The position numbers and the translations under genes are program-made. Source: Planctomycetota bacterium (GTDB taxonomy: Bacteria > Planctomycetota > GCA-002687715 > CAIWVZ01). From it: a stretch of DNA of 64,000 nucleotides. The notes under the pieces were generated by a model. It searched no databases. It was not told the DNA's origin and saw nothing but the letters and a program-made list of their open reading frames with translations. Where the stretch lies: contig JBGANV010000012.1 of NCBI GenBank assembly GCA_044222185.1, forward strand, positions 32,001 through 96,000. The letters are read 5' to 3'. Of this stretch, positions 19,098-24,548 are shown piece by piece (position 1 is the stretch's first letter; every line of letters begins with the position of its first letter).

Positions 19098-19172
19098 GGA
19101 GGTGTTGCCGCACCGAGTCCGTATCACGTGCGAGCCGAACCGGCCTCGAACGATGGCCGTGGATGGAGACGC

Positions 19173-20198
19173 ATGATCGACGCGCGACGAGTTCTCTGCG
19201 GTGCGAGCGTGCTGGTGATCGGGTGGATCCTCGGTGGCTGTCAAGCTGGCTCGGTGAGCATCGCGGGAGTGATCGAGCCCGTGGTGGCGGACGATGGATA
19301 CGCGCTGACGACATGGCGCCTCGTGCCGCAGGGCGAGGACGACTCACTTCGGACGCCGACGGCGCTCGTCGTCTACGCCACCGGTTCCGAGGACCAGACG
19401 GTGACGCGGGTCATCGGAGAATTCGCCGGGTTTGCGATCCTGGGCGCTCGGGTCGTCCTCCCGGAGCGGCGCGGAGTTCGGGGTGACGAGCCCATCGACG
19501 AGGCGGCGACGCGTCTTGGTGCGACGCGCGGGCGGCGGATCGCCGATCTCGCGGCCGTCGTCCGCGCAGCAAGTCGCGCGGTCGATGAAGGCGTACCCCT
19601 GGTGCTCGTCGGGTCGAGTGAAGGTGCCGACGTGGCCGCCGCGGTCGCCGCCGAGGAGCCCCGCGTCACGCACCTGCTGCTGCTCGGCGGGGGTGGCGGG
19701 TGGACGCAGGCCGATGAGCTGCGCCATTTCGTGCGCTCTCGACCGGGGTATCTCGGCATCCACAGCGAGGCGGAACTCGACGATCGCCTGATGGACATCC
19801 GCCTCCGTCCGAATGCTGCGGAGGATTGGCTCGGGCATCCCTACCGACGGTGGAACTCTTATCTGTGGAATCGGCCTGCGGACGACCTCGTGAAAGTGAA
19901 GCGGCCGATCTTCATCGCCCACGGCGATCGGGACGAAAGCGTGCCCGTCGAGAGCGCCAGAGCTCTGCGCGATGCCTTGTCCGCCGCGTCCTCGGACTTC
20001 GAGTATCGCGAGTATGCCGGTGCCGATCACGCCTTCCTTCTTGCCGACGGAGTGACGTCCGCGTTCCCGCTCGTGGAGGTGGACGTGATCACGTGGCTGT
20101 CGGCGCACGGCGTACTTTCGCCAGCCGACGCCGCGTCCTTCACCGCTCGGGTGCGCGCCGCTCACCCGCGTTCGTTCCGAACGCCCGGCTCCGCCTGA
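19173..20198 (+). CDS. Alpha/beta hydrolase lipoprotein (S9/esterase-like)
   Basis: RBS GGAG and lipobox LGGC. Nucleophile elbow GSSEG, acid motif HGDRDESVP, catalytic His in GADH. Confidence 0.88.
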   Translation: MIDARRVLCGASVLVIGWILGGCQAGSVSIAGVIEPVVADDGYALTTWRLVPQGEDDSLRTPTALVVYATGSEDQTVTRVIGEFAGFAILGARVVLPERRGVRGDEPIDEAATRLGATRGRRIADLAAVVRAASRAVDEGVPLVLVGSSEGADVAAAVAAEEPRVTHLLLLGGGGGWTQADELRHFVRSRPGYLGIHSEAELDDRLMDIRLRPNAAEDWLGHPYRRWNSYLWNRPADDLVKVKRPIFIAHGDRDESVPVESARALRDALSAASSDFEYREYAGADHAFLLADGVTSAFPLVEVDVITWLSAHGVLSPADAASFTARVRAAHPRSFRTPGSA

Positions 20199-20644: not shown

Positions 20645-20685
20645 AAAAAAGGACGGCGGAGAGGCCAATGGCCACTCCGCCGTTC
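20645..20685 (-). terminator. Rho-independent terminator of the putative selenoprotein gene
   Basis: Minus strand reads ACGGCGGAGTGGCC-ATT-GGCCTCTCCGCCGT-CC-TTTTTT, 30 nt after the stop at 20716-20718. Confidence 0.85.
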
Positions 20686-20715: not shown

Positions 20716-21942
20716 TCAGTTCCCGGATTGCCCGGTCACACCGCCGACGATCGGTTTGACGTTCGACTTGGGTTTGCTGGTCATTCCACCGAAGAGCGAA
20801 CGCGAGTGCTCGAGGTTGACTTCAAGTTTCTTGTTCTGTGGTACACGCCCGGTGTACTCCTTGAAGCCGCCCCCTCAACAGCCTCCGAATCGGCCCTCGA
20901 CGACGACCGCCTTGGTCTCGGCGTCGTAGACGATGATCTTCGGAGACTTCGCATCGGGCTTGAACTCGTAGTACTCCTCGCCGCCCCGGCCCATGAATTT
21001 CACGGTCGGGGGCACGGTGAGCTTGTCCTTGTCGATCGAGAACTCGAAGTCCATGTCGAGAGGACCGCCCCACGCCATCGAGGTCGACTTGCCCGCTTCG
21101 ACGGTGAGCGGCTTGCAGTTGGTGCCACGGACCTTGGCGGTTTCGCCGCCCTTCCGCACGAAGCCCCAAAGCAGCTTGTACTCACCGGCTGGAACGGTCA
21201 GTCCGTTCTTGAGCGCCGAAAGCTCGAACGAGATGTCGCCTGCTGCGTTCGCGATCACGGCTGACTGCAGCTCTCCGCCTTCGGACTTGAAGCCCGATGC
21301 GAGATTCACCGTCCCCGTCGGCGTCGTGCACGGCTCGACCTTCACCGAGTCGCCGCCAGGCGTCACGGAAAGTGAGTAGAGCTGGCCGCTGATCGAAATC
21401 GTGCGTGACAGCAGCGACGCCGCCTTGCCCGATCCGACGATCATCGCGTCCGTTCCAAACTCGTCGAACCGCCCGTTGCCGTTCAGGTCGATGAGCTTGA
21501 TGTCACAGCCGGCGACCTTGCCACCCATTGCGCAGGTGCTCAGGTACTTCCACGCCGTGCCTTCGTTGATGATCCGGACCGCATACGAGAAGGCCCGTCC
21601 CTCGCTGGACTTGCCTTTCAACACGACCGAACCACCGACGCCCTTGACCCGCTCATCGACCTTGCCGTCGCCGTTGGTGTCGACGCCAAGCGAGATCCCG
21701 TCGCTCTCCACGAAGAAGCCGCGTCCGCCGGCATGGGGAACCGGGATGATCTGTCGACCATCCGGTTCCGCGCCGAGCGGTAGCGGGACTTCATTGGGAA
21801 CGAGGAACTCCCATTTCGGCGGGACGAAGAGCCTCATTTGAGACTCGGCGCCTCCGCTGCCATCTCCCCCGCGGCACCACCCCGATGAGGCGATGATGCA
21901 CGCGAGGAAGCTGGCCAGGAGCACACGTTGCTCTTTGACCAT
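20716..21942 (-). CDS. Putative secreted selenoprotein (408 aa, Cys355-Sec356 in G-C-U-G); 355 aa if the UGA at 20875-20877 terminates
   Basis: RBS GGAGG and a hydrophobic leader. Ca-binding-like loops DTNGDGKVD and DLNGNGRFD. Sequence reads ...EGRFGGC-TGA-GGGFKEYTGRVPQNKKLEVNLEH...QSGN-TGA. A SECIS-like hairpin follows the first TGA and the terminator follows the second stop. Confidence 0.78.
20841..20857 (-). promoter_or_regulatory. Candidate bacterial SECIS hairpin
   Basis: mRNA reads UGA-17 nt-GUACAC-CGGGC-GUGUAC. The perfect 6-bp stem closes an apical loop 23 nt downstream of UGA, with G at loop position 2. Confidence 0.68.
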
Positions 21943-22224
21943 GTTGTCCTCCGATAGGAATGACCAGACTGGCCGCACACATGCGCGGCCGGCGGCGATT
22001 CTATCGGCTGAGGCGGAGCTGGTTGGCCGGATTCGCGGAAATGCAGAAACCGTGGATGGGGAACCGGACGGGCCGGCGACTCGCACCGTACAGGCGCGCC
22101 CCGTGACGCTGGCTTCACGCGGCTGGCCGCAATTGGATCTCCGTCTTCTCGGTTGGAGCGACGGTCGACGTGCCCCTGCGGCACGATCACCAGCCTCGAC
22201 TGGCCCGGATCCGGGCCCCGTCGA

Positions 22225-24387
22225 TCACCCAGCGGCAAGGTCGACGGATCGGCCGATCACCTGCTCGAGGATGTCCTCGATGGTGAAGAGGCCGATCGGA
22301 TGACCGGCGTCCTCCACGAGACAAACGGTGGTGCCAGTGCGCTGAAACTCGGCGAGCGTGGAGGTGAGGGCCTCATCTGGACCGATCGTGCGCAAGGGCC
22401 GCACCAATCGGGTCCAGTCGTCAGGCGTCGCAGGTTCGCCGTCCCCGAACAGGTCCTTCACGAGCAGGTAGCCGATCGGCCGGCCATCGGTGTCCTCGAC
22501 CGGCCACCGCGAAAAACGCTCCTTCGCGAGTTGCCGGAGTACTTGGGAGAAATCCGCCGACGTCGACAGCCGGCGCACGCGCGACCACGGAACCATCACG
22601 CTGCGAACCGTGCGATCACCCAGGTTGGCGACGTTCTCGAGGATCAGCCGAAGCTTGACCTCGCGAATCGAGTGCTCGATGCCGTCGCGGCTCACGCCGG
22701 CGTCCTTCAGCACCAGGCGCACGAGTGCCAGCGCCGCCTCGGCCTCCTCGAACACGGCCGCGGATGCACCGGCCTGCTCGAGCGCGGCCCGCTCCGACAG
22801 GTAGCGCGCCCGCACGACGATCTTCGCCGTGGGGTTCATCGTGCGAGCGGCGCTGACGACGGCGAGCCGGTCGGCAGCGTGCGGCAGCGTGAGGATCACG
22901 TGAGACGCTCGCGCGACGCCGGCCTCACCGAGGATCAGTGATCGAGACGCGTCGCCGAAGATGGCGAGACGCTGGCGCGCATGGAGCTCGCGCACCGTCT
23001 CGAGATTCAGATCCACGACGACGGTCTCGAGCCCCGCCTCGCGAAGCAGGTGATCGACGGATTGCCCCACAGGCCCGAACCCGACGACCACGGCCAGCGG
23101 CTTCTGTTTCATGGCCGGTTCGGCCACGGCCCGGATCGTGGCGATGTTGCCCGCTCGCACGGCGCCGCGTGCGCCCCGATTCAGGGCGCTCCACAACCTC
23201 GGCCGCCGTCGGATCCAACCGTCGAGCGCGGGCAACGCCGCGAAGAGAAGCGGGTTGAGGGTGATCGCGACGATCGCCGCACCCACCAGCGCGTTGTGGC
23301 CGGCCTCGGGCATCAGCCCCTGCCTGCGCCCCACGTCCGAGAGGATGAACGAGAACTCGCCGATCTGGGCGAGCCCGACCGCGACGGTCAGCGCCGTCTT
23401 CGACGAGTGTCGGAAGGCCATCACGAGGGCGAACGCCACGAGCGGCTTCAGCACGAGGATGACGGCGAGGGCACCGAAGAGCGTCCCCGGGTTCTCGACG
23501 ACCGATTTCGGATCGAAGAGCATTCCGACCGAGACGAAGAACACGACGGCGAAGGCATCTCGCAGGGGAAGTGCGTCCGCGGCGGCCTGATGGCTCGATG
23601 GCGACTGAGCGACCATCATGCCGGCGAGGAACGCTCCGAGCGCCATGGATGCTCCGAACGCCGCGTAGGCCCCGACCGCCAGTGCGATCGACACCACGAG
23701 CACCGTGAGCGTGAAGAGCTCGCGTGAGCGGAGTCGTGCGACGCGCGCGAGCAGCCACGGGATCGCACGGGCGCCGACGACCATGAGGATCGCCACGAAG
23801 GCGCCGAGCTTGAGCAAGGCCACGCCCAGGGTCGTCGCGATCTGCCATCCGGACGCCGCCGGATCGCCCGGGCCTCCGAACGCCGGGATCAACACCAGCA
23901 CGACGACCGTGAGGATGTCCTCGACGACGAGCCATCCGATGGCGATGTGACCCTCGGGCGTATCGAGGGCCTGGCGGTCGTCGAGCATGCGAATCAACAC
24001 GACCGTGCTGGCGACCGCGAGCGCCAGCCCGAAGACGATGCCCGAGCCCATGGGAAAGCCGAGCACCGCGAAGGCCGCGGCACTAACGACGGTGGCGGCG
24101 AGACTCTGCCCCAGCGCGCCCGTGATGGCGGTGCGCTTCACCGCGAGCAGGTCCTTCAGATCGAAATGGAGCCCGACCCCGAACATCAGCAGGATCACCC
24201 CGACTTCCGAAAGCTGCTGCGCGATGTGGACGTCGCCGGTGAATCCGGGAGTGTGTGGCCCGATCGCGATGCCGGCGAGGAGATAGCCCACGATCGGCGA
24301 CAAGCGGAGACGCTGGGTCAGGAGGCCCAGCAGCCAGGCAGCGGTGAACGCCGCGGCGATCGTCGTGACCAGGGGGATATCGTGCAC
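22225..24387 (-). CDS. CPA2 cation:proton antiporter (YbaL/RosB/Kef-like) with RCK-N domain and a C-terminal CBS pair
   Basis: Membrane motifs LSPIVGYLLAGIAIGP, LSEVGVILLMFGVGLHF, ASTVV, GWLVVEDI, LRDAFAVVFFVSVGM and AQIGEFSFIL. RCK motif VVGFGPVG...FGDAS. CBS motifs VRSVMVP...FSRWPV...GLFTIEDILE. GTG start assumed. Confidence 0.92.
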   Translation of the reverse strand: MHDIPLVTTIAAAFTAAWLLGLLTQRLRLSPIVGYLLAGIAIGPHTPGFTGDVHIAQQLSEVGVILLMFGVGLHFDLKDLLAVKRTAITGALGQSLAATVVSAAAFAVLGFPMGSGIVFGLALAVASTVVLIRMLDDRQALDTPEGHIAIGWLVVEDILTVVVLVLIPAFGGPGDPAASGWQIATTLGVALLKLGAFVAILMVVGARAIPWLLARVARLRSRELFTLTVLVVSIALAVGAYAAFGASMALGAFLAGMMVAQSPSSHQAAADALPLRDAFAVVFFVSVGMLFDPKSVVENPGTLFGALAVILVLKPLVAFALVMAFRHSSKTALTVAVGLAQIGEFSFILSDVGRRQGLMPEAGHNALVGAAIVAITLNPLLFAALPALDGWIRRRPRLWSALNRGARGAVRAGNIATIRAVAEPAMKQKPLAVVVGFGPVGQSVDHLLREAGLETVVVDLNLETVRELHARQRLAIFGDASRSLILGEAGVARASHVILTLPHAADRLAVVSAARTMNPTAKIVVRARYLSERAALEQAGASAAVFEEAEAALALVRLVLKDAGVSRDGIEHSIREVKLRLILENVANLGDRTVRSVMVPWSRVRRLSTSADFSQVLRQLAKERFSRWPVEDTDGRPIGYLLVKDLFGDGEPATPDDWTRLVRPLRTIGPDEALTSTLAEFQRTGTTVCLVEDAGHPIGLFTIEDILEQVIGRSVDLAAG

Positions 24388-24548
24388 GCGTGGCACGATA
24401 CACGACGCCGGCATCACGACACGGATGCCGTGTGTCCGGGAGGCTACGAGGGCGCGTCTCGCGGCGCTCGGGGCTCGCTCGTCGACGCCGCGCCCGCGCG
24501 GTCGATCGTGCGGCTGAGCGCGTGCGGAGCGCGCAATTCGCGGAAGGC

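Follow-up and report, generated by a model that had tools for sequence, protein, structure and literature searches.

A probable selenocysteine codon inside a gene for an exported Planctomycetota protein, and the family to which it belongs

Does the TGA that closes a predicted bacterial gene also end its protein? The question is raised by a locus on the minus strand of a 64,000-nucleotide stretch of DNA from a Planctomycetota bacterium (GenBank assembly GCA_044222185.1, contig JBGANV010000012.1, positions 32,001 to 96,000; hereafter the window). Here an ATG at 21942-21940 opens a reading frame whose residues 1-355 finish ...EGRFGGC at an in-frame TGA (20877-20875), after which 52 further sense codons (GGGFKEYTGRVPQNKK...GGVTGQSGN) lead to a second TGA at 20718-20716. 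A first-pass annotation, made by a model from the letters alone, had drawn attention to this continuation and proposed that the first TGA encodes selenocysteine (Sec) in a secreted protein. Its account of the frame is borne out by the sequence, as is its remark that the extension has normal codon usage rich in G+C at third positions (GC3): the value is 0.75 in-frame against 0.55 and 0.43 in the other frames, with 0.82 in the upstream open reading frame (ORF). In a genome of 67.5% G+C, an open extension of 52 codons is by itself weak evidence. Taking together the observations set out below, we put at about 0.9 the probability that this UGA encodes selenocysteine in one gene for an exported protein of 408 residues, the length of the read-through product. 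That estimate draws on a column held by UGA or Cys across homologs, a conserved tail beyond it, a covarying hairpin downstream, the presence of Sec machinery in the genome, and a structural model that builds the tail into the fold. The complete predicted selenoprotein gene occupies 20716..21942 (minus strand) and comprises 408 codons plus a true stop, with Sec as codon 356.

Homologs and the column of the UGA

A word-indexed search of protein databases returned 158 relatives, and the counts given here are taken from 120 of these 158, among which the named relatives are hypothetical proteins of Planctomycetota metagenome-assembled genomes. When the relatives were compared by the pattern of their C-termini, 110 of the 120 were found to finish exactly before the column of the UGA (98 of the 110 with ...GGC) and three to finish within a few residues of it; seven, of 384-401 residues, read through. 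The Cys-form database proteins (P0035, P0053, P0066, P0073, P0098, P0105 and P0117), together with two genomic loci (L037 and L040), read GGCCGGGFSAY... and run from there into a tail homologous to that of the window. Database proteins and genomic loci with Cys at this position are continuous across the very point at which most of the listed relatives are cut.

A six-frame search over 301 sampled genomes of the phylum gave matches in 79. In the 31 loci examined first, the aligned column is TGA in 29, at identities down to ~30%, with Cys in L036 and the remaining locus, L009, truncated where its contig stops. Of ten further loci, nine again carry TGA at the column and the tenth gave no tblastn match; the same codon is found there in L038 (from the cultured Engelhardtia mirabilis Pla133, reading GSC-U-GRGF), L039, L041 and L043. 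The source genome itself carries a paralog of 34% identity (G000:C14:158123-159247; L006:1504-2676, +), which reads PGNC-U-GFGF and has a hairpin of its own. At a greater distance, L041 reads KFEYG-U-GGSC and L043 KYG-U-GGTC at the same loop, and L041 aligns with the family profile over 285 columns with an hhalign probability of 99.1% and an E value of 1.9e-18; Pfam returned nothing informative on these two or on a third distant relative, L007.

In the window, Cys355 (TGT, 20880-20878) and the predicted Sec356 (TGA) form a vicinal pair at 20875..20880 (minus strand) within the Gly-rich loop GGC-U-GGG, and the post-Sec tail of 52 codons, residues 357-408 (20719..20874, minus strand), is conserved in Sec and Cys forms alike. 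An alignment of 34 sequences has the Sec/Cys column invariant, as it does V367 of the tail, while P368 and G385 are conserved in at least 90%. Judged from these sequence comparisons, the gene is a member of a large Planctomycetota superfamily in which predicted Sec forms far outnumber Cys forms, and it is this dominance which suggests that selenium is essential to the chemistry of the family.

The hairpin, the decoding machinery and other readings of the UGA

Selenocysteine insertion sequences (SECIS) of bacteria are recognised as hairpins placed just 3' of the UGA, with a G in the apical loop. The window has a SECIS-like hairpin, GUACAC-CGGGC-GUGUAC, at 20841..20857 (minus strand), corresponding to columns 27-43 of A2, an alignment of 29 sequences on which hairpin conservation and covariation were assessed. 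Its stem begins 18 nt past the UGA; as the first-pass annotation had described, the stem is a perfect one of 6 bp and the loop, CGGGC, is spaced 23 nt from the UGA. Across the 29 sequences the spacing between UGA and hairpin is constant. All 29 form pair 31-39, by G-C in 15, A-U in 11, U-A in two and C-G in one, and the pairs on either side of it, 30-40 and 32-38, are C-G in 28. The covariation score of 0.265 compares with 0.094 for shuffled alignments, none of 500 shuffles reaching the observed score, and with 0.113 at most when the pairing partners are slid. Column 31 opens a Thr, Ala, Ser or Pro codon and column 39 is the wobble base of an Arg or Ser codon two codons on; because a first codon base is thereby matched to a wobble base, protein coding alone does not explain the covariation of this pair. 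The lower stem exists in two registers, unbulged in the subfamily of the window and with a bulged U elsewhere (giving a stem of ~8 bp), and the consensus of the apical loop across the family is CGGGN or CGUGA; a legend in PMC2398784 mentions conserved guanosines of the apical loop. At the site of the hairpin the Cys forms L037 and L040 fold at only -3.9 and -4.6 kcal/mol, against -10.7 to -16.0 kcal/mol in four Sec forms.

The genes needed to decode such a codon, which the annotation had proposed to look for, are all present in the source genome (7.08 Mb in 16 contigs). A tRNA-SeC(tca) lies at C1:1632625-1632719, directly after selA (C1:1631414-1632508), and selB is found in the same genome, as is selD (G000:C14:427704-428624; L003). 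The last is itself a selenoprotein gene, with one in-frame TGA in the context GGG-U-ACK and a G+C-rich hairpin ~27 nt past it. None of selA, selB and selD lies close to the window gene or its paralog. In the phylum at large, selenocysteine use appears to be very common, SelA being present in 221 of the 301 sampled genomes; it is present in 39 of 39 genomes that have a TGA form of the family, a comparison between kin that are not independent and for which no formal co-occurrence statistic is given because the genomes are related.

By analogy with fdhF of Escherichia coli, SelB with Sec-tRNA(Sec) would bind the hairpin at 20857-20841 as the ribosome meets the UGA, and selenocysteine would be inserted as residue 356 beside Cys355; translation would then stop at the TGA at 20718-20716 and transcription at a terminator at 20683-20645. 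The likeness to SelB- and SECIS-dependent genes of the fdhF type extends to the in-frame UGA, the short hairpin within the ORF at a fixed distance with Gs in its loop, the accompanying selA, selB, selD and tRNA-Sec in the genome, and the existence of Cys-containing homologs. It does not extend to the protein, whose fold and motif are unrelated to those of fdhF, and the stem is of 6 bp here (~8 bp with a bulged U in the other subfamilies).

Several observations weigh against decoding as selenocysteine and must be set beside those that favour it. The stem of the window hairpin is short, and the hairpin region, at -12.8 kcal/mol, has a z of -0.46, with 55 of 200 shuffles equally stable; since the single-sequence fold is no better than shuffles, the case rests on covariation. 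Rfam, searched around the site, returned chance-level matches only and none at the hairpin. L036, a Cys form closely related to a Sec form, retains the hairpin (-14.8 kcal/mol), so that the hairpin is weak in two of three Cys forms and its loss in Cys forms is therefore not general. A diverged extra copy, L058 (G116:C747), has Gly-Trp (TGG) at the Cys-Sec columns, the other matches of its host genome, G116, keeping TGA. Five other distant relatives without TGA carry an unrelated loop, and L007 (G000:C1:1554865-1555542; L007:1297-3636, -) is a secreted relative of 780 residues without the Cys-Sec loop, sharing with the family its middle and C-terminal beta domains (GCGGEEY motif) and having an N-terminal helical region to which Pfam assigns no confident family. 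From the non-Sec relatives it follows that not every copy of the scaffold bears the redox loop, but not that translation ends at the UGA.

Were the TGA at 20877-20875 a true stop, the product would be of 355 residues and the conservation downstream would have to belong to an RNA element or a separate small ORF. The behaviour of gene callers, which end 113 of the 120 listed relatives at or near the column, would agree with this, as would the lack of significance of the single-sequence hairpin, but we regard it as very improbable: the Cys forms read straight into a homologous tail, that tail shows coding-type GC3 in no frame but this one and supplies three strands of a confidently predicted domain, a separate downstream ORF would be without a start codon or ribosome-binding site where the frame is in any case continuous across the TGA, and the terminator lies past the second stop and not the first. 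We give hardly any credence to a recent nonsense mutation or sequencing error (in effect a pseudogene), or to a TGA read as Trp or another standard residue without Sec machinery. Trp, Arg or Gly at the column had been named by the first-pass annotation as the sign of a simple nonsense mutation or sequencing error, and Trp does occur there, in L058; it does so only in that diverged paralog, while TGA is kept in 29 of the 31 loci down to ~30% identity and in nine more, the usual replacement is Cys and not Trp, and the hairpin covaries. Nor is TGA generally a sense codon here, because the gene's own terminator-proximal stop is TGA too. Similarity among homologs extends to either side of the UGA, the column itself being TGA or Cys, and the downstream hairpin is conserved and covarying, both as the annotation had anticipated for a selenoprotein.

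Fold, family and possible chemistry

No Pfam or NCBIfam model matches the read-through protein, in agreement with the annotation's statement that the family was not recognisable among known selenoproteins. Literature searches on selenoproteins and selenoproteomes of Planctomycetes/Planctomycetota and on new selenoprotein families turned up no account of it, nor did term searches in passages of PMC4807772, PMC13188914, PMC12013277 and PMC2398784; supplementary tables such as S9 of PMC4807772 or Dataset S2 of PMC2398784 (families GOS_A and GOS_B) might list it as a hypothetical protein. Apparently, then, known decoding machinery serves a new family, with a new fold and loop context, that is mostly of the Sec form and includes Sec-Sec variants.

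AlphaFold2 was run with the 34-sequence alignment, the lead sequence being P0001, which has C for U and an artefactual last residue that stands for the stop codon. The model has a mean predicted local distance difference test score (pLDDT) of 88.7 and a predicted template modelling score of 0.83, and is all-beta apart from a single short helix in the signal peptide. Confidence falls below 50 at residues 1-15 and 17-27, and residues 396-409 are disordered. The model puts Sec356 in the loop that follows strand 346-351 and links two strands of a beta-sandwich; pLDDT falls to 78 there. Beyond it, residues 357-395 of the tail (pLDDT 92-94) complete the C-terminal beta-sandwich with strands 363-366, 373-381 and 385-388. 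Because the tail supplies these three strands of the last domain, a product of 355 residues would be without them.

Comparison with known structures gave only generic likenesses. Foldseek against the PDB found no convincing match to the whole model, its best hit (E 7.5e-4, TM 0.12) being meaningless. VIA-align, whose matches concern residues 292-395 and barely cover the other domains, superposed this region on fibronectin type III (FN3) and immunoglobulin (Ig)-like domains, among them a cytokine-receptor FN3 domain and MG1 of E. coli alpha-2-macroglobulin, over 71-95 residues with root-mean-square deviations of 2.2-3.7 Å and Z scores of 6.0-6.8, which are in the generic range; none of the matched proteins has a redox loop. 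The Pfam family Big_3_5 was matched under its cut-off on residues 199-247, outside the C-terminal domain.

The Sec column offers some further clues to function. Cys forms aside, Sec is the only invariant chalcogen of the family, and the position of its partner varies. Usually the partner is Cys at -1, as in the window; it is shifted to -2 in L023, to -3 in L020, L051 and L053 and to +4 in L041 and L043, and L025 has no partner for its Sec. In four loci (L014, L021, L045 and L046; genomes G099 and G272) adjacent in-frame TGA codons read S-U-U-G, in both paralogs of two genera and with a single hairpin downstream; on sequence, these would be vicinal Sec-Sec pairs. Thiol peroxidases and reductases have resolving residues, and the varying partner position of the family resembles a catalytic Sec served by a movable residue of this kind. 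A single locus, L024 (L024:1033-2445, minus strand, genome G128), has a frame that runs past the tail into an AhpC-TSA/Redoxin domain with the motif WATWCGPC (PF00578, E 3.6e-24).

Given Sec decoding, and on the strength of the movable partner residue and the thioredoxin fusion of L024, we tentatively favour redox catalysis as the function, carried out by Cys-Sec or in some lineages Sec-Sec, while rating it at somewhat less than an even chance. The protein would be exported by a Sec-type (secretory) signal peptide and would consist of three beta domains, the first with two Ca-binding-like loops, and Cys355-Sec356 would sit in the flexible Gly-rich loop of the last, FN3/Ig-like domain. The pair could cycle between the selenol/thiol form and an eight-membered selenenylsulfide ring, and this extracytoplasmic redox centre might be recycled by a periplasmic thioredoxin of the TlpA type. 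Three results count against a redox role. Among ~40 loci scanned, the thioredoxin motif is found in L024 only; the four ORFs that flank the window gene have no relatives beside its homologs; and Pfam, NCBIfam and fold searches detected no thioredoxin fold or known catalytic domain, an absence that is not exclusion.

The main rival accepts that Sec is inserted but would have the loop bind or transfer selenium, another chalcogen or a soft metal (Hg, Cu or As) without catalysis, for instance by capturing selenium in the periplasm for delivery towards SelD. It has genomic context in its favour. In three related genomes of one family and two genera, a cluster runs member-selD-selA-selD-permease (PF03773), with a small (~340 residues) Sec subfamily member first (L055:5030-10846, also L056 and L057), and the second selD of the L055-type cluster has in-frame TGA codons when TGA is read as U; in the Phycisphaerae, moreover, the distant member L041 divergently adjoins selA. 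MerA and MerT bind Hg(II) through vicinal Cys pairs, and TlpA-type thioredoxins also keep the thiols of metallochaperones reduced, so that the TlpA-like fusion of L024 is compatible with this explanation too. Selenoprotein genes, however, often neighbour the Sec machinery for no other reason than that they use it, as PMC4807772 has it in a passage on fdhA. As noted, selA, selB and selD are not close to the window gene or its paralog, and a second ligand that shifts or is absent is easier to reconcile with a resolving residue than with a fixed chelate. We consider a selenium- or metal-handling role possible but on balance unlikely. A bolder proposal, and one we hold to be rather improbable, is that the superfamily would form an extracytoplasmic selenium-acquisition module, in which the Sec loop captures or reduces environmental selenium and hands it inward to selenophosphate synthetase. 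This would explain the member-selD-selA-permease clusters, the existence of Sec-Sec variants and the overwhelming predominance of Sec forms over Cys forms and, if true, would amount to a selenium-dependent system of selenium acquisition that has no described counterpart.

How the predicted Cys-Sec centre, read as a redox site, compares with known chalcogen sites can be judged from three cases. Mammalian thioredoxin reductase has a C-terminal Gly-Cys-Sec-Gly redox centre that forms a selenenylsulfide, and it was to this that the first-pass annotation had likened the site. The resemblance holds for the four-residue motif, with a vicinal Cys-Sec able to form a selenenylsulfide, and ends there: the motif of the window is internal, at residues 354-357 of 408 and 52 residues from the C-terminus, the protein is bacterial and exported and bears the motif on a loop of its all-beta, FN3/Ig-like domain, and the gene uses a bacterial hairpin within the ORF and not a SECIS in the 3' untranslated region. 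Pfam found no match to FAD/NAD(P) pyridine nucleotide-disulfide oxidoreductase domains even at E up to 1. With the C-terminal pair of MerA and with MerT, the GGCCGGG of the Cys forms has in common an adjacent chalcogen pair in a flexible segment; there is no relation in sequence or fold and there are no mer genes nearby, and the partner position varies in the family of the window. Among known bacterial selenoproteins, those with thioredoxin-like folds and the molybdopterin enzymes make up the majority. As regards the CxxU/UxxC selenoproteins of the thioredoxin fold, no thioredoxin-family Pfam model matches the window protein, whose Sec is predicted in the loop of a beta-sandwich.

If confirmed, this would be a widespread selenoprotein family that is systematically mis-annotated, given that 113 of the 120 listed relatives are cut at or near the Sec column. 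Its scaffold would be unusual, an exported, all-beta, Ig/FN3-like protein with a vicinal Cys-Sec pair and, in two genera, adjacent Sec codons served by one hairpin. The cultured carrier Engelhardtia mirabilis Pla133 makes the selenoprotein claim directly testable.

Gene layout and neighbourhood

A Shine-Dalgarno-like GGAGGA, read directly from the sequence at 21947..21952 (minus strand), stands 4 nt ahead of the ATG, and the start at 21942 agrees with the MVK... N-termini of homologs P0009 and P0018. The N-terminus, ~residues 1-27 (MVKEQRVLLASFLACIIASSGWC...; 21862..21942, minus strand), resembles a signal peptide on inspection, as do the N-termini of homologs, which have the basic-hydrophobic-AxA patterns of Sec-type signal peptides. 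Two DxNGxGxxD loops follow, the first at D88-D96 (DTNGDGKVD; 21655..21681, minus strand) and the second at D152-D160 (DLNGNGRFD; 21463..21489, minus strand). D88, D152 and G157 are invariant in the 34 sequences, and D92 and G93 are conserved in at least 90%. Pfam matches to EF-hand_5, EF-hand_1 and Dockerin_1 were obtained at E 0.17-0.82, all under their cut-offs, those to EF-hands falling on the first loop and that to Dockerin_1 on the second. With the conserved Asp and Gly residues, these sub-threshold matches are the whole basis on which the two loops are described as Ca-binding-like.

Upstream of the gene in the window, 22225-24417 (minus strand) encodes a cation/H+ antiporter with TrkA-N and CBS domains, and on its other side 19128-20198 (plus strand) encodes an alpha/beta hydrolase (DLH/S9-like). 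When flanking ORFs were compared all against all, only the paralog-type subfamily proved to have a conserved gene downstream. Its example in the source genome, at L006:2680-4125, encodes a secreted protein directly after the paralog; proteins of this kind, of 480-860 residues, are kept in 15 loci, including that of Engelhardtia mirabilis (L038), and match no Pfam family.

At its 3' end the window gene has its stop TGA at 20716..20718 and, beyond it, an intrinsic terminator at 20645..20683 (both on the minus strand). The terminator consists of a 9-bp G+C-rich stem (ACGGCGGAG/CUCCGCCGU, 20683-20653) enclosing an inner stem of 4 bp, and a U6 run at 20650-20645. The first-pass annotation was right to place it past the second stop and not the first; its distance of 30 nt was slightly off, as the terminator begins 32 nt past that stop. 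RNAfold pairs a clear stem ahead of the U-run; a consensus terminator scanner reported no terminator at the end of the gene, and we attribute the miss to the 13-nt loop. Just ahead of the stop, the window-type subfamily keeps the short sequence GGVT(P/G), only a few residues from the end of the protein (window 20719-20760; also L008, L012, L016-L019 and L021), which falls in the C-terminal part that AlphaFold leaves disordered.

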